Part shown: positions 1,447-63,644 of the stretch, one piece after another
Layout: every line of letters starts with the position of its first letter
How positions within the stretch are numbered: position 1 is the stretch's first letter
NCBI GenBank assembly: GCA_964345045.1
Contig: CAYFPM010000002.1
Span: forward strand, 219,481 to 283,480
Length of the DNA stretch: 64,000 bases
Direction of reading: 5' to 3'
Origin: an uncultured Gammaproteobacteria bacterium
GTDB taxonomy: Bacteria; Patescibacteriota; Patescibacteriia; Magasanikbacterales; UBA922
Position numbers and translations under genes: made by a program
The notes under the pieces: model-generated
The model's input: only the letters and a program-made list of their open reading frames with translations
What the model was told of the DNA's origin: nothing
The model's database searches: none

Positions 1447-1845
1447 TTAGGACTCGTTGGTTAGAGTTTTTTTGCAGCTAACACAAGCTCCGGAAGTTGG
1501 TCTGGCGCGTAGTCTTTCTTCGCCAATTGGTTCGTCGCAATATTTGCAAATACCATAACTGCCATTGCCCAATCTATCCAAAGCTTTGTTTACATCGCGC
1601 AAGCTTTTTTCCAAGGTAATTTCTAGTGGTTTGTTGGCAGTGTATTGGGCTACTTCTCTGGCATTGTCATCGTCTTCGTCACCATATTCTGGAAAAGAAG
1701 CATTAAAATCTCCCTCTACATTGGGGTTTGGTTTGGTAAATTTGGCTAGCTCTTTTTCTAGGCTTTTCTTATCTTCTTCCAATTTGCTTTTTATTTCGTC
1801 TAGAAAGGCTTTTGGGTAGGGGCTATTCTTGGCCATATTTTTCAA
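1447..1845 (-). CDS. DksA/TraR family C4-type zinc-finger protein
   Basis: 132 aa with a coiled-coil N-terminal half and C-terminal CKYCDEPIGEERLRARPTSGACVSCKK (CxxC-N17-CxxC) typical of the DksA/TraR family. Confidence 0.75.
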   Translation of the reverse strand: MKNMAKNSPYPKAFLDEIKSKLEEDKKSLEKELAKFTKPNPNVEGDFNASFPEYGDEDDDNAREVAQYTANKPLEITLEKSLRDVNKALDRLGNGSYGICKYCDEPIGEERLRARPTSGACVSCKKTLTNES

Positions 1846-1980
1846 ATACTTTCGGTAACTAAGCTGTTACCTAATTTCCATCCCGACTAGGGCTTGTACT
1901 ATTGAAGTATAGTTGAATAATTATAATAAAAAAAGCCCTGTTTGGCAAGCTTTGGGTTTTTGTTTTTTAAATTAAAAAAA

Positions 1981-2180
1981 GGCCGATCTGTAGCCCTAGG
2001 TAATAGTGTGGCTGATCGGCCAAACAGTCCTAGGATCACAATGGATGAATTGCTTCATACAGAGTAGGCGTCCTTAGGACGTTTTCTAACCCCTCTACCA
2101 GTCAGAGGTATGAGTCTCCTGGTGCGCAAGGCAGAGCACTTGGCACATAAGTCGGAGAGTACCATAACTAGGCTCGTCTC
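1981..2180. ncRNA. candidate structured non-coding RNA of unknown class in a long intergenic region
   Basis: This locally GC-richer stretch has nested inverted repeats (ggccgatc...gatcggcc and gtcctagga...tccttaggac) with an A-run and T-run flanking the outer stem. No ORF, and no match to rRNA or tRNA signatures. Confidence 0.2.
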
Positions 2181-2495
2181 TTATTTTTTTTGCTTTTGTT
2201 TTTGTTTTCCATGCTTTGGCTTTCGGCAAATGTTTTTTTAGAAGATATTTTTGACGCCGATAAGCCACAAGGATGAGCCTGGTATAAGAGACTAGTAAAG
2301 GAGAATGATGTTCCTCACGATGTGAATCATGGGGAACAGATTTTTATCAAGGAACTAATATAAGTATAACATATTTGTTCAGTTTTGTCAATAGGGCTAG
2401 TTCTTGGCTAAAACTAGCTAAAAAAGTGGATTTTTTGGCAAAAAATTTGATTATAATAGTCTATACTTTTGTAAAATTTTGGGGAAAAGTGGAAA

Positions 2496-2698
2496 AGTTA
2501 TCCCCAAACAACCTTAGTTTTACACAGCTTTATCCACAGTTGTGCAGGATATTGTATACAAATGGGGATAAAAACTGGGGATTTCTTCGTGGAAAAGGTT
2601 GTTGATGGAGGGGATTTTGCTAGTTTTAAAAAGTCTTAGAAAAGAAAAATATAGAGTTATTCACAAAAATCTACAGTTTTACACAGTTCTGTCCACAT
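2496..2698. promoter_or_regulatory. cluster of DnaA-box-like 9-mers (candidate oriC or DnaA-regulated region)
   Basis: One perfect TTATCCACA (2530-2538) and four near-consensus boxes: TTATCCCCA (2496-2504), TGGGGATAA (2562-2570), TTATTCACA (2657-2665) and TGTCCACAT (2690-2698). They sit within two ~50-bp imperfect direct repeats that each end in TGTATACAAA, inside a 970-bp non-coding AT-rich region. Confidence 0.4.
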
Positions 2699-2818
2699 AT
2701 GTATAGGATTGTGTATACAAAAAGGAGGTTTTTTTGGAGAAATTGGCTAGTTTTGCTTATTTGGCTAGGTTCTGCTAGTCTTTCTATAAGAGGGAATTTC
2801 CTCCAAGGAGAATATGAG

Positions 2819-3346
2819 ATGAACGATTCGGAACGTGTTTGTAAGGCCCTTTCTAATACCTTAGATAGGAATCTAGGGGGGATGCTTGCTCCATACCACC
2901 CTATCAATCACAACGGTGATTGCTTTACGGAAGAGATGACAAGAGATCGTCTCATGTCTCTAGACTGGACAGCTTGCCCGGATCATCCGGACTCCCTAGA
3001 GTATAGCCTGATTTTTCAGGCAAAGGCGGGAGGCCTCGTCTCGGTAGAGAGAGCCGCCAAGTTGCCGAGAGAAACAGAGCTAGAGGTTGTCTACCAAAAT
3101 GATCATCCGCTCAGCGGTGGGTATATGCTGCGCATCGTCGGTGCCGGCGACGGTGTGGTGGTTGACTGTGTGACGCTGGTCTTGATCTGCCTCGATCCTA
3201 GGAGGGAAAGGGTAGAGAAAATTGCTCCGGGAGATTTGAGTACTCCTACATGTATCGACATGACTCGTGTACAGGTGAGTCGTGGAGATATGATTTTGCC
3301 GCAAAAAGCCTTGGAGCTTGGCTTCGAGGTGGTGAGCGTTCGCTAA
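2819..3346 (+). CDS. hypothetical protein (GC-rich islet A, ORF 1)
   Basis: 176 aa from the ATG at 2819, preceded by AAGGAG with 8-nt spacing. About 52% GC against a ~33% flanking background. No recognisable motifs. Confidence 0.5.
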   Translation: MNDSERVCKALSNTLDRNLGGMLAPYHPINHNGDCFTEEMTRDRLMSLDWTACPDHPDSLEYSLIFQAKAGGLVSVERAAKLPRETELEVVYQNDHPLSGGYMLRIVGAGDGVVVDCVTLVLICLDPRRERVEKIAPGDLSTPTCIDMTRVQVSRGDMILPQKALELGFEVVSVR

Positions 3347-3538: not shown

Positions 3539-3907
3539 ATGAGATATTTTGAATATTTTTCTTTTCAGGATCTTTCGGGGAGGTTGGATCCTAGAGGTCT
3601 CGAAATATTTTTGAGTGTTGGATCCGAAGACGCGGCTGTCTTGGGGCGTTGGTTTCCGGCTGGTTCCAAGACTCTTGGTTTTACTTGGTGTAGAGAAGAG
3701 GGGCGCTTCTACATCAGCGGTCGAAAGATCTCTGTTTTCCCGGCTGTAGAGTTGTCGGGATTAAGCCTTTTTCTTTCTGCTGGCACGGCCAGTTTGGCTG
3801 TTGGAGCAGATTTGCAATTGGCTCAGCTTTTGAGAAAGGCGACCAAGATGGTCGAAACCGGAGAACCTCATGTTCATATCATTTTTCTGCAGTCTGATCC
3901 GACCTAA
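3539..3907 (+). CDS. hypothetical protein (GC-rich islet A, ORF 2)
   Basis: 122 aa with TAGGAG 6 nt upstream of the ATG. About 50% GC. No recognisable motifs. Confidence 0.45.
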   Translation: MRYFEYFSFQDLSGRLDPRGLEIFLSVGSEDAAVLGRWFPAGSKTLGFTWCREEGRFYISGRKISVFPAVELSGLSLFLSAGTASLAVGADLQLAQLLRKATKMVETGEPHVHIIFLQSDPT

Positions 3908-4093: not shown

Positions 4094-4103
4094 GTGTATA
4101 TAC
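4085..4103. promoter_or_regulatory. palindromic operator overlapping the -10 element (likely antitoxin autoregulation site)
   Basis: gtatatac-tgt-gtatatac: two copies of a self-complementary 8-mer. Confidence 0.4.
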
Positions 4104-4123
4104 AAAGTATTAACAAAGTATAT

Positions 4124-4417
4124 ATGAAAACTTCACTTTTAACAGTTAAAATTGATCCCAAACTAAAAGAAGATGCCAAGCAAGTAGCCAGTGATTTGGG
4201 GCTTAGCTTAAGCGCTCTAGTAATCGGCAAACTCCAAGAAGCGGTTCGTTCCAAAACAGTTCAGTTTAGTGCTGGCGAAGAACCTAGTGAAAGGTTGATT
4301 GAATCTATTCGTCAGGCCGAAGAAGATAGGAAAAATGGTGATTATTACTCTTTTGATGATCCAAAAGAGGCTTTGGCTTTTCTTGATAAAGTGAGGGAAG
4401 GGAAAATAGAGGTATGA
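4124..4417 (+). CDS. type II antitoxin, ribbon-helix-helix DinJ/RelB-like
   Basis: N-terminal MKTSLLTVKIDPKLKEDAKQVASDLGLSLSALVIGKLQEAV is an RHH fold. The stop overlaps the toxin start as ATGA. The listed ORF begins at 4094 but the ATG at 4124 fits the promoter. Confidence 0.65.
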   Translation: MKTSLLTVKIDPKLKEDAKQVASDLGLSLSALVIGKLQEAVRSKTVQFSAGEEPSERLIESIRQAEEDRKNGDYYSFDDPKEALAFLDKVREGKIEV

Positions 4418-4683
4418 GAATAGATTATTCCAAAGTTTTTATTAAACATTTACAAAAAGCTCCTATAAAGATTCAAAAGAAATTTAGGGAAAGGCTAGAT
4501 TTATTTTCTGAGAATAAGTTAGATCCAATTTTACGCAATCATTTGCTAAAAGGTAAATGGAAAGGTTACCGATCAATAAATATAAACGGAGATTGGCGAG
4601 CTATTTATCATGATATGGGAGACGGAACGATTGAGTGGGTAGAATTTGTAGAAATTGGTACACACAGTGATTTATATAAATAA
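4414..4683 (+). CDS. yafQ: type II toxin, YafQ/RelE family mRNA interferase
   Basis: 89 aa. HLLKGKWKGYRSININGDWRAIY...VEIGTHSDLYK matches the YafQ pattern H.L.G.WKGYR..H..PDW.LIY....RTGTH..LF. Confidence 0.7.
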   Translation: MRIDYSKVFIKHLQKAPIKIQKKFRERLDLFSENKLDPILRNHLLKGKWKGYRSININGDWRAIYHDMGDGTIEWVEFVEIGTHSDLYK

Positions 4684-4769: not shown

Positions 4770-7700
4770 ATGAAAAGATTTTCTTTTTTGATTTTGCCGA
4801 CTCTTTTTTTGGGTGGCATTTTTTTATTTGCCAAAACTGTGTGGGGATCTGGTGGAAGTATTGTGATTAGTGAGGTGGGGGCTTATGAACCAAATGGTTA
4901 TGAGTGGCTAGAAATTTATAATTATAGTGATTCTGATATAGATTTTAATAATTGGGTATTTTGGGAGAATAATACAAATCACAAAATAAATTTTAAAGAC
5001 GGTGTTTCATCTATTTTGTCGGCTGGCGAGTATGCCATTGTTGCCGAAGACGATACCAAGTTTAAAGAAAAATACCCAGACGTAAATGTAAAAATATTTG
5101 ATAGTTCGTGGGGAACATTAAAAGAGAGTGGAGAAGAAATTGGACTAAAAGATGAAACTGGTAATTTTGTAGAACAGTTTACATATATAAAAGCTTCTAA
5201 CTTTTCTTTGGAAAGAAAAAATTTGGATACGCTAGACTATACTGCTACCAATTGGCAAGAACACCCAGACAGCCACACGGCCGGCCAGGCAAATTATTGG
5301 CAAACTAACTCGGGAACACCAGAGCAGACCGAAAATCAAAATTACGATTTGCGAATTAACGAATTTGTACCTAATCCCAACTCTGGAGAAAAAGAATGGA
5401 TAGAAATTTATAATTTGGGTTTGGAGATAGATCTAAACAATTGGACTCTGAACGATGGAGTTGGAACAATTTATACTTTTTCTGAAATACTTGCTGCCGA
5501 TCAAATTTTGGTAGTAGAGCTAAGTGGTAGCAAATTAAATAATGGGGGAGATATTGTGTCTTTGCTAAACTCGAATGGAGAAATTGTGGATTCTGTCACC
5601 TACGGCTCTTGGGACGACGGAGACACTAGTGACAATGCCCCGATTCCGGGAAAAGGAGAAAGTTTGGTTTGGTCAAATGGCATTTATATAATTAGTAGTA
5701 ATCCTAGTAAAGGAAGCCTAGATTCAGAAAATTATGGATCGGAAAATGAAAATGGTGAATCACAAGATGAGGGAGAGTCTGTCGACTCTACAAACGAAGA
5801 TTCTACCAGTGTAGGATCCGACTCTAGTGAAATTTTTGGTTTTGCAAAAAGTGATTTGGTGATAAACGAATTGGTGTCTGATCCGGACGATAGCGGAGTA
5901 GAGTTTGTAGAAATTTATAATAATTTGGACAAAGATGTAGATCTGGATGGTTGGTATATAGAAGAAGGTAGTGAGAGCAAAACTTTTTTGGAAGGCTCTA
6001 TTTTGGCCAAAGGGTTTTTTGTTTTGGAAAAACCAAAAGGTAATTTGAACAATAGCGGAGATATTTTGTTTTTGTATAGTGAAAACGAAACATTGATAGA
6101 TTCTGTCACTTACGGCAGTTGGGACGATGGTAATCTGGCCGACAATGCCCTAGCCGCAGACGACCCAAAAAGCTTGGCTAGGAAATTTGATGGAGCCGAT
6201 GCAGATAATGATTTTTTTGATTTTTTTCCTACCACCGAAATTACCAAAGGTTTTCCAAATGTAATTGTTTTGGAAAGAGATTCACATATAAACGATGCGC
6301 AAACTTTGGACAATATTGATACAGAGATTAAAAAAATTGTTATAAACGAAGTTTTTCCCAATCCGGCTGGAGCAGATTCGGAAGAAGAATTTATAGAATT
6401 AGTAAATTTGGAAAATTCGGTAGTGGATTTGTCTGGTTGGAAATTGGGAGACAAAAGTAGCAAAAGATTTACTTTTGTCAACACACAGATTGCTGCTGGT
6501 GAACTTTTTGTTTTGAAAAGAGCCGAGACTGGCTTGGCACTAAACAACAGTGGGGGTGACCAAGTAAAGTTGTTTGATCAATATGGCTCTTTGGTTAGTA
6601 GTGTTTCTTATAAAAAATATGCAGAAGAAAATTATAGTTATTCTCTAAAAAATGGTGAATGGGAGTGGACAGAGGTACCTACTCCTCAAGAAGAAAATAT
6701 TATTGTAACCAATAACCAAGCCCCGATTGCCAATATCTATACCGAAACCGAAGTTTTGTCTGGAGAAAAAATTATTTTTGATGCTTCTGATTCTTATGAT
6801 CCCGAAGGAGATGAATTGGATTTTTTTTGGGAGTTTGGAGATGAAAAAAAAGGAGAAGGCGTGGTTGTTTCTCATTTTTATAATAAAGAGGGGATTTACA
6901 CCGTAGAATTATTGGTAGTAGATAGCGAAGGTAATGAAAACAAAAAGAAAGTTTTGGTAAATGTCTTGGGCGAAGGGAGTGGTAGTTTGGATTTGGCTCA
7001 AGGAGATTTTTTACAAGACATCCAAATTACAGAAATTTTTCCCAACCCCGAAGGTTCGGATAGTACAGAATTTGTAGAAATTTATAATGCCGGGAACACC
7101 GAAATAAATTTGTCGGCTCTAAAAATAGATGACGAAGCTGGTGGTTCGGATCCTTATTTGCTTGGAAATAAAGTTATTTCGCCTGGAGAATATTTGATTT
7201 TTGGCAAGCGTGAAACTGGCTTGGCTTTTAACAACACCACCGATGGAGCTAGATTGCTTGATCTTAATAATTTGGTTTTGGCAGAAGTTTATTATGAAGA
7301 TGTAATTACCGGAGCTAGTTTTGCTAGAGATGACAATGGAGTTTGGGGTTGGACCAGCGAACCAACTCCCGGAGCAAAGAATATTCTTGTTGACGCAACC
7401 ATTCTTAAAACAATTAACTCTGGTTCTGGCAAAAAATCCAGCCAGCCGATTGTAGATATTTCGTTAGGACAAATTAGAGATTTTGATGCTGGTGACAAAG
7501 TTCATACTGTTGGCACTGTTGTAGTCGAACCGGGAATTTTTGGTTCGCAATATTTTTATATAGTAGACGAAGTTTTTGGTGTGCAGGTGTATATGCACAG
7601 CAAAGATTTTCCAAATTTGAAAATTGGAGATTTGGTAAGTGTGTCTGGAGAGATAAGCCAAGCTTATGGAGAAACTAGGCTAAAAGTAAAAACGAAAGAT

Positions 7701-8210
7701 AATATCCAAAAAATAGATAGTATTGAAATTCCAAAAAGTAAACAAATAGATATTTACGAAATAGGTGAAACTTTGGAAGGTTCATTTGTATTTGTAAGTG
7801 GAGAAGTGACCGAATTAAAAACTTCTTATATGTATGTAGACGATGGTACCGAAGAAGTAAAAGTTTATTTTAAAAAAGGAACTGGGATTAGCAAAAAAGA
7901 TTATGCTGTAGGAGAAATTGTAAAGGTAACAGGTTTGGTGGGGGAGTCTAGAAGTGGTTATCAACTTTTACCTAGGTCAAAGGATGATATAGAAAAAATA
8001 GGCTTTGCAGAAGATGTGGCTGTTACAAAAGAGGTGGCAGGCGGCAATGGAGAAAGCGAAGTGGCAGAAAAATATCTTACTGCCACGGCTGGTGGACTTA
8101 CTTCTATTCTTATTGGTTTGTTTGCTAGGGCACGGGGGCTGGCTACGCTTGGCGCAGCCAAGAGATTTGGAGGTATGGCAGTGGGGTTGTTTTTTAGGAG
8201 GAGGGGGTAG
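4770..8210 (+). CDS. large secreted/surface protein with multiple lamin-tail-domain (LTD) repeats and a PKD domain
   Basis: 1146 aa. N-terminal signal/TM segment. At least five LTD-type repeats (INEFVPNPNSGEKEWIEIYNLG...NNWTLND, INELVSDPDDSGVEFVEIYNN...LDGWYIEE, INEVFPNPAGADSEEEFIELVNL...LSGWKLGD, ITEIFPNPEGSDSTEFVEIYNAG...). PKD-like FDASDSYDPEGDELDFFWEFGD. C-terminal hydrophobic stretch plus an Arg-rich tail. Confidence 0.85.
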   Translation: MKRFSFLILPTLFLGGIFLFAKTVWGSGGSIVISEVGAYEPNGYEWLEIYNYSDSDIDFNNWVFWENNTNHKINFKDGVSSILSAGEYAIVAEDDTKFKEKYPDVNVKIFDSSWGTLKESGEEIGLKDETGNFVEQFTYIKASNFSLERKNLDTLDYTATNWQEHPDSHTAGQANYWQTNSGTPEQTENQNYDLRINEFVPNPNSGEKEWIEIYNLGLEIDLNNWTLNDGVGTIYTFSEILAADQILVVELSGSKLNNGGDIVSLLNSNGEIVDSVTYGSWDDGDTSDNAPIPGKGESLVWSNGIYIISSNPSKGSLDSENYGSENENGESQDEGESVDSTNEDSTSVGSDSSEIFGFAKSDLVINELVSDPDDSGVEFVEIYNNLDKDVDLDGWYIEEGSESKTFLEGSILAKGFFVLEKPKGNLNNSGDILFLYSENETLIDSVTYGSWDDGNLADNALAADDPKSLARKFDGADADNDFFDFFPTTEITKGFPNVIVLERDSHINDAQTLDNIDTEIKKIVINEVFPNPAGADSEEEFIELVNLENSVVDLSGWKLGDKSSKRFTFVNTQIAAGELFVLKRAETGLALNNSGGDQVKLFDQYGSLVSSVSYKKYAEENYSYSLKNGEWEWTEVPTPQEENIIVTNNQAPIANIYTETEVLSGEKIIFDASDSYDPEGDELDFFWEFGDEKKGEGVVVSHFYNKEGIYTVELLVVDSEGNENKKKVLVNVLGEGSGSLDLAQGDFLQDIQITEIFPNPEGSDSTEFVEIYNAGNTEINLSALKIDDEAGGSDPYLLGNKVISPGEYLIFGKRETGLAFNNTTDGARLLDLNNLVLAEVYYEDVITGASFARDDNGVWGWTSEPTPGAKNILVDATILKTINSGSGKKSSQPIVDISLGQIRDFDAGDKVHTVGTVVVEPGIFGSQYFYIVDEVFGVQVYMHSKDFPNLKIGDLVSVSGEISQAYGETRLKVKTKDNIQKIDSIEIPKSKQIDIYEIGETLEGSFVFVSGEVTELKTSYMYVDDGTEEVKVYFKKGTGISKKDYAVGEIVKVTGLVGESRSGYQLLPRSKDDIEKIGFAEDVAVTKEVAGGNGESEVAEKYLTATAGGLTSILIGLFARARGLATLGAAKRFGGMAVGLFFRRRG

Positions 8211-16233: not shown

Positions 16234-16307
16234 GTCGGAGTGAAAGGACTCGAACCTTCGACCCCTGCGTCCCAAACGCAGTGCTCTAGCCAACTGAGCT
16301 ACACTCC
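16234..16307 (-). tRNA. tRNA-Pro (anticodon UGG)
   Basis: Cloverleaf CGGAGTGTAGCTCAGTTGG...CTGCG-TTTGGGA-CGCAG...GGTTCGAGTCC...CACTCCGA. Confidence 0.85.
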
Positions 16308-16394
16308 GTTGTTACAATTAACCTCTGACCTTTGACATCTGATGCTTCAATTACGAAGTTAAATGTCAATTGTCAATTGTTAATTGTTTCAAAT

Positions 16395-16467
16395 GTGCCG
16401 AGGGAGAGAATTGAACTCTCGACACGAGGATTTTCAGTCCACTGCTCTACCACTGAGCTACCTCGGC
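16395..16467 (-). tRNA. tRNA-Phe (anticodon GAA)
   Basis: GCCGAGGTAGCTCAGTGGTAGAGC..CTGAAAA..GAGAGTTCAATTCTCTCCCTCGGCA; one U-U mismatch in the anticodon stem. Confidence 0.8.
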
Positions 16468-16559
16468 ATATTTTAATAACCCTTAACTCCTGACAATTAA
16501 CCTTTAACTATTTTTAGATAGAGTAAGGTGTTAATTGTCAGATGTTAAAAGTTTATTTG

Positions 16560-16632
16560 TGGACCAGACAGGACTCGAACCTGCCACCCCCGCCGTGCAA
16601 AGGCGGTGCTCTACCAGATGAGCTACTGGCCC
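16560..16632 (-). tRNA. tRNA-Ala (anticodon UGC)
   Basis: GGGCCAG acceptor with the G3:U70 alanine identity pair; anticodon loop TTTGCAC; T-arm GGTTCGAGTCC. Confidence 0.85.
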
Positions 16633-16719
16633 GTATAAAACGGCCTTTGGCCATCGTGTGACCAGACCTTAGGGGATATATCTAGAGTCCCTTTGAAGGA
16701 GGACAATAAACGTGACAGC

Positions 16720-16748
16720 AGTATATCAATCAACTTAACAAATGTCAA
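16720..16748 (-). promoter_or_regulatory. sigma70-type promoter for the tRNA-Ala/Phe/Pro unit
   Basis: On the minus strand: TTGACA (16743-16748), 17-nt spacer, TATACT (16720-16725). Confidence 0.55.
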
Positions 16749-16760
16749 TATAATTTGGTC

Positions 16761-16794
16761 AAAATTACAACACGCCCCATGGTTGGGGCGTGTT
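16761..16794 (-). terminator. hairpin terminator separating the tRNA-fMet/Gly unit from the downstream tRNA unit
   Basis: 11-bp perfect stem aacacgcccca / tggggcgtgtt with a 4-nt loop, followed on the minus strand by GTAATTTTG. Confidence 0.45.
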
Positions 16795-16905
16795 GACTTG
16801 CCATACAGTGAATAAGTCGGGCAACTTAAATTCAATGTATAAGTTACATTATAACACAAGATATATATCTGTGTTATAGGAACAGTGGATAACCTCTGCT
16901 CCTAG

Positions 16906-16979
16906 AGCGGTAGACCAGATTCGAACTGGCGACCTCTTCCTTGGCAAGGAAGCGTTCTAGCCAACTGAACTACTACCGC
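16906..16979 (-). tRNA. tRNA-Gly (anticodon GCC)
   Basis: GCGGTAGTAGTTCAGTTGGCTAGAAC..CTTCC-TTGCCAA-GGAAG..GGTTCGAATC..CTACCGCT; discriminator U. Confidence 0.85.
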
Positions 16980-17002
16980 CTAAGTGGGCAAAAATGCCCT
17001 AG

Positions 17003-17076
17003 TTGCGGGGGCGGGATTTGAACCCGCGACCTTCGGGTTATGGGCCCGACGAGCTGCCAGACTGCTCTACCCCGCG
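17003..17076 (-). tRNA. initiator tRNA-fMet (anticodon CAU)
   Basis: C1:A72 mismatch at the top of the acceptor stem and three consecutive G-C pairs in the anticodon stem (TCGGG-CCCATAA-CCCGA), both initiator hallmarks. Confidence 0.85.
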
Positions 17077-21927: not shown

Positions 21928-21929
21928 AG

Positions 21930-22001
21930 AGCGAGCGACCGGAATCGAACCGGCATCATCGGCTTGGAAGGCCGAGGTAATAGCCATTATACAACGCTCG
22001 C
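21930..22001 (-). tRNA. tRNA-Gly (anticodon UCC)
   Basis: GCGAGCG acceptor; anticodon stem-loop TCGGC-CTTCCAA-GCCGA; T-arm GGTTCGATTCC; discriminator U. Confidence 0.8.
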
Positions 22002-32516: not shown

Positions 32517-32525
32517 TGTGGATAA
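32517..32525. promoter_or_regulatory. consensus DnaA box upstream of nrdJ
   Basis: TGTGGATAA, the exact reverse complement of TTATCCACA. Confidence 0.35.
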
Positions 32526-38161: not shown

Positions 38162-38245
38162 GTCGCGGTGGTGGAATCGGTATACACGAGAGACTTAAAA
38201 TCTCTTGCCCGCAAGGGCTTGCGGGTTCAAGTCCCGCCCGCGACA
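38162..38245 (+). tRNA. tRNA-Leu (anticodon UAA)
   Basis: GTCGCGG acceptor; anticodon loop CTTAAAA; long variable arm GCCCGCAAGGGC; T-arm GGTTCAAGTCC. Confidence 0.85.
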
Positions 38246-38295
38246 CAGATTAACCCTATACCTCTTCGGTATGGGGTTTTAAATTTATTTTGAAA

Positions 38296-60779: not shown

Positions 60780-60872
60780 TGGCGGAGAGAGAGGGATTCG
60801 AACCCTCGGTTCGCTAAATTGCGAACACCGCTTTTCGAGAGCGGCACCTTAAACCAGCTCAGACATCTCTCC
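60780..60872 (-). tRNA. tRNA-Ser (anticodon CGA), CCA encoded
   Basis: GGAGAGA acceptor; anticodon loop CTCGAAA; long variable arm GTTCGC-AATTTA-GCGAAC; T-arm GGTTCGAATCC; 3' TCTCTCCGCCA. Confidence 0.85.
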
Positions 60873-63480: not shown

Positions 63481-63644
63481 TGTGAGACCTCAAAATAAAA
63501 TCTGGCTAGAGATTTACTCGAGGTCTTTTTTATGATGTGATTTTTTAAAAGTTGGTTGGTTCATATTTTGTATTAACGTATTACTACATTAATACAAGAG
63601 TTTGAAAATGTCAAGATTGTTTGTGTGGATAAACAAAAAAAGCG

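Follow-up and report, generated by a model that had tools for sequence, protein, structure and literature searches.

Clusters of DnaA boxes (DBCs) are found close to oriC in B. subtilis, and for several of them a regulatory effect on adjacent genes is known as well (Ishikawa 2007, PMC2533591; Okumura 2012, PMC3245932). The locus described here resembles these DBCs in being an intergenic cluster of consensus boxes that lies next to a promoter, outside the likely unwinding origin and usually near it, and here, too, it appears plausible that one cluster both controls a gene and sequesters DnaA. Unlike the DBCs, it is built from a fixed cassette in which three co-oriented boxes (21- and 12-bp spacing) are fused to a 20-bp palindrome (PAL). 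The sequence of this putative control cassette is preserved throughout a candidate phylum-level clade, in many cases in duplicate, and the cassette would drive a large structured RNA instead of a protein gene. Similarity also exists to the autoregulated dnaA promoter, which here carries three tandem boxes followed by TGGCTAAnnnTAGCCA: box triplets and this inverted repeat are also present at the RNA promoter, but there the boxes are spread, combined with PAL and located at least 130 nt upstream, whereas those of dnaA abut each other close to the gene. With the basal unwinding system of oriC (Richardson 2019, PMC6669920; Pelliciari 2021, PMC8287927) the locus shares head-to-tail consensus boxes and nearby AT-rich DNA; it differs in that its boxes are not followed by DnaA-trios, that the skew does not switch there in relatives, and that dnaN is not its neighbour. 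Finally, the RNA is comparable to large structured bacterial ncRNAs (such as OLE, raiA, HEARO, ROOL and GOLLD): it measures several hundred nt, folds into many helices that covary heavily, has single-stranded motifs that are conserved, and is confined to a narrow phylogenetic range. Unlike the large ncRNAs of Rfam, it has DnaA boxes upstream and dksA downstream.

The window, i.e. the whole 64-kb stretch of DNA that was analysed, is part of a Candidatus Magasanikbacteria (CPR) MAG. CPR/Patescibacteria represent a vast uncultivated share of bacterial diversity and have tiny genomes. In the reading that we favour (probability roughly 0.7), a control region made up of DnaA boxes and PAL, often near the origin, drives a new structured RNA and may in addition titrate DnaA. 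The interval that harbours it is quite probably a compound non-coding locus consisting of a structured-RNA gene and its conserved upstream control region. More tentatively, and at slightly less than even odds, we propose that the RNA constitutes a large structured family (370-450 nt) whose transcription is wired to DnaA and a PAL factor via the conserved, often duplicated cassette. A non-coding block of ~600 bp that is kept across a whole clade of tiny genomes must be important there.

The interval extends over about 970-980 bp between a dksA/traR-like gene and the next ORF on the plus strand. It had been described as gene-free, and indeed no ORF of more than 78 aa is present in it; ARAGORN detected neither tmRNA nor tRNA in the interval. 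The AT-rich tracts noted around the boxes were confirmed by a GC content of 0.325 over 2401-2800 versus ~0.38 for the whole window, and a tblastn search found neither dnaA, in agreement with the earlier observation, nor dnaN in the 64 kb. The flanking genes and the elements of the RNA gene are as follows.

1447-1836, minus strand: dksA/traR-like gene (ATG at 1836)
1920-1948, minus strand: promoter of the dksA/traR-like gene (-35 TTGCCA at 1948-1943, 17-nt spacer, -10 TATAAT at 1925-1920; promoter scan)
1974-2022, minus strand: intrinsic terminator of the RNA (nested hairpin 2022-2016/1986-1980 and 2013-2010/1995-1992; terminator scan)
~2356 to 1975, minus strand: structured-RNA gene, ~380 nt (conservation, covariation, promoter, terminator)
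2363-2391, minus strand: promoter of the RNA gene (-35 TTGACA at 2391-2386, 17-nt spacer, -10 TATACT at 2368-2363; promoter scan)
2722-2818, plus strand: spacer 5' of the GC-rich ORF (not conserved; contains the RBS; outside the conserved module)
2819-3346, plus strand: GC-rich orphan ORF (RBS at 2805-2812)

The RNA gene occupies the left two-fifths of the interval. The original prediction had placed a possible structured RNA at 1981-2180; an RNA is present there, but it is larger (~2356 to 1975) and encoded on the minus strand, where the fold has a z-score of -5.8. On the plus strand, the stretch 1975-2200 folded no better than shuffled sequences (z = -0.9), and an RNA on this strand was therefore rejected. 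The RNA stretch is collinear and conserved in ~50 loci (nhmmer), with a length of 370-450 nt in relatives. RNAalifold, applied to 20 sequences, predicted 79 pairs, 63 of them with compensatory double changes; 91.8% of the cells were paired compared to 36-45% in slid controls, and none of 500 shuffles reached the observed values. Nine helices were predicted, including a long-range one (2304-2290 with 2103-2090), and an A-rich single-stranded motif, AAAACAAAAACAAAAG at 2208-2193, is conserved. The 3' terminal hairpin also serves as terminator. Its helices 8 and 9 covary, and seven consecutive U residues (1980-1974) come directly after it, the corresponding T-run being invariant in the alignment. 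A CUGGG upstream and a CCCAG in the terminator loop, spotted by eye, possibly form a pseudoknot.

At the other end, the promoter matches the consensus in 11 of 12 positions and has in addition an extended -10 TG at 2371-2370; judged from its position, transcription would start at about 2359-2355. Each of the 20 aligned loci has a promoter of the type TTGACA-17-(TG)-TATAAT/TATACT, and its position with respect to the RNA 5' end does not change. With its own promoter, its own terminator and covariation beyond controls, the RNA has the properties of an independent structured ncRNA gene, and its defined ends, structure and promoter make it a concrete object for follow-up.

No family for this RNA was detected with Rfam 15 (4227 models), either in the window at the gathering score and at E<=10 for 1700-3000, or in relatives (14 loci at the gathering threshold and five more at E<=1); tRNAs and chance matches were all that these searches returned. 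The covariance models of RNase P, tmRNA, 6S, SRP, T-box, OLE, raiA, HEARO and ROOL were considered and rejected, as no score came near the gathering threshold. By this measure the RNA is previously undescribed; as far as sampled, it is confined to Magasanikbacteria-like Patescibacteria. A metagenome scan anchored on the RNA yielded six true homologues among the 120 matches listed, two of which duplicate known loci; they repeat the order element, RNA, dksA. The constant linkage of the RNA to a gene for a DksA/TraR-type RNA-polymerase-binding factor is a lead to the function of the RNA, not evidence for it.

Upstream of the RNA promoter, the following elements were located.

2406-2419: inverted repeat GGCTAAAACTAGCT, directly upstream of the -35 (promoter-region alignment)
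2448-2467: promoter-proximal copy of PAL, degenerate with 4 mismatches (window scan)
2497-2562, plus strand: module copy A, with boxes 1, 2 and 3 and PAL at 2541-2560
2498-2506, plus strand: DnaA box 1, TTATCCCCA
2518-2526, plus strand: DnaA box 2 (weaker), TTTTACACA
2530-2538, plus strand: DnaA box 3, perfect, TTATCCACA
2563-2571, minus strand: extra DnaA box between the module copies, in opposite orientation, TTATCCCCA
2656-2721, plus strand: module copy B, with boxes 1', 2' and 3' and PAL at 2700-2719 (2 mismatches)
2657-2665, plus strand: DnaA box 1', TTATTCACA
2677-2685, plus strand: DnaA box 2' (weaker), TTTTACACA
2689-2697, plus strand: DnaA box 3', CTGTCCACA

All five DnaA boxes named in the original prediction were recovered. 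Of the 20 boxes with at most one mismatch in the whole 64 kb, four fall within 170 bp; among 300 windows simulated with a first-order Markov model, none had four boxes in 200 nt and seven had three. The boxes had also been assigned to two direct repeats at 2512-2570 and 2672-2730. Such a repeat exists, though in the register 2496-2562 and 2655-2721 (67 nt, 76% identity, period 159), and both copies end with TGTATACAAA. PAL is a 20-bp palindrome with the consensus TGTATAsAnTAnTsTATACA; in relatives, the promoter-region alignment shows it in the stretch that separates box 1 from the promoter. It was considered as a possible LexA box and as a parS site; the latter was rejected, PAL being unlike TGTTNCACGTGAAACA and having its copies tandemly clustered at two promoters.

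The 66-nt unit of three co-oriented DnaA boxes plus PAL was found by nhmmer upstream of the dksA-like gene in ~70 of 80 syntenic loci, always in one orientation relative to dksA and ~600-900 nt away from it; roughly 15 relatives have two copies. Column conservation indicated that boxes and PAL are kept while the 11-nt spacer between boxes 1 and 2 is free to vary. In 18 of 19 loci, 126-163 nt separate box 1 from the RNA start. In the window, copy A lies ~130-200 nt and copy B ~290-360 nt upstream of the start site. Both the placement of the boxes and the direction in which they point are thus conserved with respect to a defined promoter, as expected of DnaA-regulated promoters. This supports the earlier suggestion of a DnaA-controlled region, the controlled unit probably being the structured RNA. 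PAL together with DnaA-like boxes also occurs upstream of rmuC in some relatives, indicating that the cassette is in use at more than one locus.

The inverted repeat at the -35 links the RNA promoter to dnaA. Contig L205, which carries dnaA and dnaN, is almost certainly the window organism's own dnaA-dnaN contig, outside the window (L205-L207 do not overlap with it). Upstream of its dnaA gene, three DnaA boxes are followed by the near-identical inverted repeat TGGCTAAATCTAGCCA; in relatives, too, three tandem boxes and the inverted repeat TGGCTAAnnnTAGCCA precede dnaA.

From sequence features of this kind we infer that DnaA binds to the element and affects transcription. In the proposed mechanism, 2392-2721 would act as a conserved control region comprising the inverted repeat at the -35, PAL and one or two cassettes (two in this window), upstream of the RNA gene that extends from a near-consensus, extended -10 promoter of the sigma-70 type to its intrinsic terminator. 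DnaA would bind to the box triplets, probably cooperatively because of the box spacings of 21 and 12 bp, and PAL would be bound by a putative dimeric factor. Together, the two proteins might set RNA transcription according to DnaA level or replication status. Control of the RNA would then parallel that at the dnaA promoter of the same organism, where three tandem boxes precede the same inverted repeat. Given high-affinity boxes and, in most relatives, a location of the cluster at most 10 kb from dnaA-dnaN, the element probably ties up some DnaA as well, as do the clusters close to oriC in B. subtilis.

If this is correct, the RNA would belong to a DnaA regulon that has dnaA, and in some genomes also rmuC, among its members. 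It would represent an RNA-level output of replication status and may act with the adjacent DksA-type RNA-polymerase factor. The hypothesis offered is that expression of the RNA is tied to replication initiation.

The boxes are located at or beyond -130, which is rather distant for simple repression.

Several other functions were weighed for the element. If it were purely a locus for DnaA titration or inactivation, similar to datA or the B. subtilis DBCs, its linkage to the RNA would be incidental. The three to six high-affinity, intergenic boxes are in line with this notion, for which six B. subtilis DBCs that restrain initiation from outside oriC provide a precedent (PMC3245932, PMC2533591). 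So is the neighbourhood of the element: in relatives, dnaA/dnaN are 1-10 kb away on either side, and among the 30 loci with full 10-kb flanks they lie within 10 kb in 19 and are absent within that distance in 11, meaning that the element is often, not universally, origin-proximal. However, titration alone needs neither a fixed position, nor boxes at the -35, nor a dnaA-like layout. Here, the element keeps its direction and its distance from the RNA promoter, extra boxes adjoin the -35 in five loci of relatives (L013, L017, L015, L022 and L024), and boxes and inverted repeat are arranged as in the dnaA promoter. Titration as the sole function is therefore unlikely; the two roles are compatible with each other.

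A cis-acting, riboswitch-like leader of the dksA mRNA, with the boxes controlling dksA, would explain why the RNA invariably precedes dksA on the same strand, and the terminator could then be an expression platform. Yet in every one of the 20 loci examined, a conserved promoter of the type TTGCCA-17-TATAAT (9-11 of 12 matches) follows the RNA terminator and precedes the dksA start, making dksA independent of read-through from the RNA gene. The spacer between terminator and dksA has a variable length of ~90 to 300 nt, and unrelated insertions occur in it. The terminator hairpin is conserved in sequence and covaries within the fold, no alternative antiterminator is evident, and 370-450 nt is an atypical size for a leader. 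We consider the chance that the RNA is such a leader to be slim.

The element might also be oriC itself, be it dnaA-distal or the sole origin, with boxes that nucleate a DnaA filament melting the AT-rich DNA at 2400-2480. Near-consensus boxes are densely clustered beside an AT-rich tract, the cluster is kept across the clade, and in a few relatives (L013, L026, L029 and L040) it lies directly upstream of dnaA. Moreover, the skew of the window turns positive at ~2 kb, where gene orientation diverges; with 1.8 kb visible to the left of the element, the window taken alone looks origin-like, and the skew test of its own replicon is indirect for that same reason. An unwinding module is defined by a DnaA box or box pair, at least three DnaA-trios (3'-NAN-5') within 16 bp and an AT-rich unwinding element (PMC8287927). 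No run of DnaA-trios was found after box 3 or box 3'; the sole run of three trios in the element (after 2498) overlaps box 2, and the AT-rich stretch is occupied by the conserved promoter, the inverted repeat and PAL. Adjacency to dnaA/dnaN, which is usual but not obligatory for oriC, does not exist in the 64-kb window.

Comparison with relatives argued in the same direction. The GC-skew check, when carried out on them, showed the same sign on either side of the element in 36 of 38 loci. In loci that include dnaA/dnaN and show both flanks (L013, L029, L034, L025 and L027, among others), the minimum of cumulative skew coincides with dnaA-dnaN; in several other loci the skew stays negative as far as the locus end. 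The minimum is located at the dnaA-dnaN spacer, 3-10 kb away from the element, even where all genes are co-oriented, as in L034 and in the organism's own contig L205, in which all genes are on one strand. The dnaA-dnaN spacers of at least 16 loci contain two boxes in tandem along with a C-rich cluster, DnaA-trios and AT-rich DNA; such a module is likewise present on L205, and no such arrangement occurs in the window. The unwinding origin of the clade is thus likely the dnaA-dnaN spacer, where an unwinding module of the Bacillus type is found. Taking into account also that the element has a constant direction and spacing with respect to the RNA promoter and recurs upstream of rmuC, the idea of an origin at this site appears largely refuted by comparison and is very improbable: the element is probably not the chromosomal replication origin. 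For origin-prediction tools this is a warning, as the site of divergent transcription at which the DnaA boxes with the best consensus cluster most densely is probably not the origin.

Lastly, it is hardly credible that the boxes are a DnaA-regulated promoter or operator of the GC-rich ORF (2819-3346), as had also been suggested: copy B ends ~100 bp before the ORF begins and the RBS is good, but the scan revealed no rightward sigma-70-like promoter, the ORF is foreign in composition (GC 0.52) and, like the second GC-rich ORF, has no Pfam or PHROG match, neither the ORF nor the stretches 2561-2659 and 2720-2819 have counterparts in any relative (nhmmer) whereas the boxes are present there at fixed distance and orientation to a promoter on the opposite strand, and the gene on this side changes in nearly every syntenic locus.

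As predicted, the stretch that separates the dksA/traR-like gene from the next plus-strand ORF was found to be gene-free; no ORF inside it exceeds 78 aa. All five DnaA-box-like 9-mers of the original prediction are present, and two weaker boxes complete the pattern.

Features of the interval and its borders (window positions)
ATG at 1836, minus strand: dksA-like gene
ATG at 2819, plus strand: next ORF after the interval
-35 at 2391-2386 and -10 at 2368-2363, minus strand: promoter of the structured RNA
2498: DnaA box, TTATCCCCA
2518: DnaA box, TTTTACACA
2530: DnaA box, TTATCCACA
2563, reverse strand: DnaA box, TTATCCCCA
2657: DnaA box, TTATTCACA
2677: DnaA box, TTTTACACA
2689: DnaA box, CTGTCCACA

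The 64-kb window holds 20 boxes with no more than one mismatch; four of these lie inside 170 bp, and a density of four boxes per 200 nt was reached in none of 300 Markov-1 simulations. The two direct repeats are real (67 nt, 76% identity), but their register is 2496-2562 and 2655-2721 and not the one first assigned to them. Two lone perfect TTATCCACA boxes elsewhere in the window (32517-32525 and 63624-63632, both minus strand) are unclustered and have no DnaA-trios near them.

By its DksA-like protein, the source is a Candidatus Magasanikbacteria (CPR/Patescibacteria) genome of metagenome project PRJEB17505. Eighty syntenic loci (L005-L084) were collected by scanning a DksA-homologue alignment against one genome per species, and were searched with nhmmer profiles seeded with both window copies of the repeated cassette (2497-2562 and 2656-2721). 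About 70 of the 80 have it, as a single or double copy; its orientation never changes, and it lies roughly 600-900 nt upstream of dksA. The column profile reads GTTATCCACA, 11 variable nt, TTTTCC(A/C)CA, gag, TTATCCACA and (g)TTGTATAGAATAGTGTATACAAA; its conserved columns are three co-oriented DnaA boxes (start-to-start distances of 21 and 12 nt) and a terminal palindrome, PAL. As boxes and palindrome are conserved while the spacer between boxes 1 and 2 varies freely, the cassette looks like an array of protein-binding sites, not like RNA or coding sequence. Conservation and collinearity extend over the whole of 1975-2562 in about 50-76 loci; segments 1837-1980, 2561-2659 and 2720-2819 have no counterpart in the relatives' loci and are unique to this genome.

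PAL (consensus TGTATAsAnTAnTsTATACA) has a second copy between box 1 and the RNA promoter. Across 1.3 Mb of loci it is nearly confined to the cassette/promoter region, and a scan of the window returned PAL-like sites at 2448, 2541 and 2700 only. Outside that region PAL clusters solely upstream of rmuC, in a few genomes, with DnaA-like boxes there too, which hints at a small regulon of a putative palindrome-binding factor. These tandem clusters of up to seven copies (L038, 4467-4803; L081, 3212-3615, with DnaA-like boxes alongside; L035, 4899-5026; L037, 5173) adjoin a tRNA gene remnant; rmuC encodes a DNA recombination protein.

Between the boxes and the dksA-like gene, the minus strand (1970-2360) forms a much better fold than shuffled sequences do (z = -5.8), whereas the plus strand does not. 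RNAalifold, applied to an alignment of 20 homologues, gave a consensus structure of 79 pairs in nine helices, with compensatory double substitutions in 63 pairs. In this alignment 91.8% of cells are paired, as against 36-45% in controls with partners slid by one to three columns, and 235 cells are doubly changed (33-61 in these controls); the observed values were reached by none of 500 shuffles. Landmarks are an invariant single-stranded AAAACAAAAACAAAAG (2208-2193), a long-range helix around two sub-domains, and a structured terminator domain. Helix 7 (2039-2058) is a short hairpin in this genome versus one of about 19 pairs in relatives, and is therefore dispensable or variable. All 20 loci carry a promoter at the same place before the conserved 5' end (TTGACA, a 17-nt spacer with an extended -10 TG, TATAAT/TATACT). 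The predicted RNA is a member of no curated family: searches of the window and of 19 other loci gave no match to any Rfam 15 model. A metagenome scan anchored on the RNA turned up at least six true homologues, all flanked by the box cassette and dksA.

Box 1 lies upstream of the RNA, 126-163 nt from its start, in 18 of 19 loci with conserved orientation, and several relatives have extra boxes right beside the RNA -35. From its sequence, the locus is rated as a predicted DnaA-box cluster or DnaA-regulated promoter with a new RNA family as its target. DnaA would bind the box triplets and, jointly with a putative PAL-binding dimer, would modulate RNA transcription; a small DnaA-linked regulon may comprise dnaA and the RNA, joined by rmuC in some genomes. 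On L205, a dnaA-dnaN contig attributed to the same organism, the region upstream of dnaA (1334-1391) contains three tandem boxes followed by an inverted repeat, TGGCTAAATCTAGCCA. A near-identical inverted repeat, GGCTAAAACTAGCT, occupies window positions 2406-2419 just upstream of the RNA -35, and this pairing of RNA promoter and dnaA box triplet is repeated in relatives.

In function the cluster resembles autoregulated dnaA promoters and the DnaA-box clusters (DBCs) of Bacillus subtilis, a precedent for DnaA buffering (PMC3245932, PMC2533591). It has high-affinity boxes, with dnaA-dnaN no more than 10 kb away in 19 of 30 fully flanked loci, and probably also buffers free DnaA in the same manner. 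Titration is compatible with a transcriptional role and does not exclude it; as the only function it is unlikely, since it leaves the fixed geometry relative to the RNA promoter unexplained.

That the RNA is a cis-acting leader of dksA is very improbable. A conserved hairpin with a U-run closes the RNA in 20 of 20 loci (window 2022-1974), and downstream of it dksA has its own promoter (TTGCCA-17-TATAAT), again in all 20; the spacer between the two differs from locus to locus in both length and content. A leader is contradicted by this conserved internal promoter and by the variability of the spacer. With its own promoter and terminator and a separate dksA promoter, the predicted RNA therefore counts as a transcription unit in its own right, about 380 nt long here and 370-450 nt in relatives.

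The proposal that the region is oriC was essentially refuted by three independent tests (skew, architecture and the organism's own dnaA-dnaN) and now seems most doubtful. The sign of GC skew is kept across the element in 36 of the 38 relatives whose flanks measure at least 4 kb on either side; in the two exceptions dnaA is its immediate neighbour. Among loci holding dnaA/dnaN with both flanks visible, the cumulative minimum falls at the dnaA-dnaN spacer (L013, L029, L034) or just upstream of dnaA (L025, L027). Gene orientation does not explain the switch in L034, whose genes all share a single strand. Several further loci have negative skew all the way from the element to the locus end holding dnaA-dnaN. 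Window skew is positive from about 2 to 40 kb, consistent with an origin to the left of the window; in the closest relatives (L016, L033) dnaN lies 8.7-9.7 kb past dksA on that side. As originally stated, dnaA is absent from the 64 kb, and so is dnaN.

In at least 16 relatives the dnaA-dnaN spacer holds a module of abutting boxes (TTATCC(A/C)C-n-TATCCACA), a C-rich cluster, repeats such as CTACTACTATTAT, which are DnaA-trios on the complementary strand, and an AT-rich tract.

dnaA-dnaN spacers with the module
Relatives: L012, L013, L016, L026, L029, L034, L035, L038
Relatives: L039, L045, L058, L061, L067, L070, L081, L082
Own organism: L205, 3038-3100

A basal unwinding system of this architecture was defined in B. 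subtilis and is present across bacteria (PMC6669920, PMC8287927). No such module occurs anywhere in the window, where the element's conserved boxes are followed by PAL and not by trios. Because the unwinding-module and skew features tested are lacking, the element falls outside the oriC class; the Magasanikbacteria dnaA-dnaN spacer with its Bacillus-type module appears to be the clade's real oriC. DnaN (P0218) and the window DksA (P0001) come from the same samples, with a longest contig of 306,756 nt given for both, and their genes almost certainly share one replicon. L205, which does not overlap the window, has the order TrmB, dnaA, 306-nt spacer, dnaN, all on one strand; the spacer contains a box pair, CCCC and an A/T-rich tract, and the cumulative skew minimum is at the spacer/dnaN start. 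In place of the oriC idea stands a new structured RNA, well supported and apparently tied to the replication initiator, from a lineage that is poorly understood.

Control of the adjacent GC-rich ORF by the boxes is hardly credible, since this genome alone has the ORF and the 100 bp upstream of it, and on that side the flank differs in nearly every relative. The variability of the flank beyond the distal cassette suggests that a hot spot for insertion or recombination adjoins that cassette. Orphan ORFs 2819-3346 and 3539-3907 (plus strand) lie in a GC-rich patch (GC about 0.52 versus about 0.37 in the surroundings) with no Pfam or PHROG match, and are followed by a RelB/YafQ-type toxin-antitoxin pair (4094-4683, plus). 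The 1146-aa product of 4770-8210 (plus) combines five lamin-tail domains with a PKD domain and a C-terminal OB fold; in L016 and L046 the module is flanked by proteins like it. A comM/yifB-like (Mg-chelatase-like) gene (1-943, minus) is cut by the window start and follows lspA in relatives too; the organism's public short-read contigs break within it (the end of L001 is window position 37). Eight tRNA genes were found, five of them in a minus-strand cluster (Pro, Phe, Ala, Gly, Met).

tRNA gene regions
16234-17076, minus strand
21929-22001, minus strand
38162-38246, plus strand
60780-60872, minus strand

Many records carrying the Magasanikbacteria-type module (DksA, DnaA, RNA), L006-L008, L013, L015-L017 and many others, are titled 'uncultured Gammaproteobacteria bacterium', probably a wrong taxonomic label.
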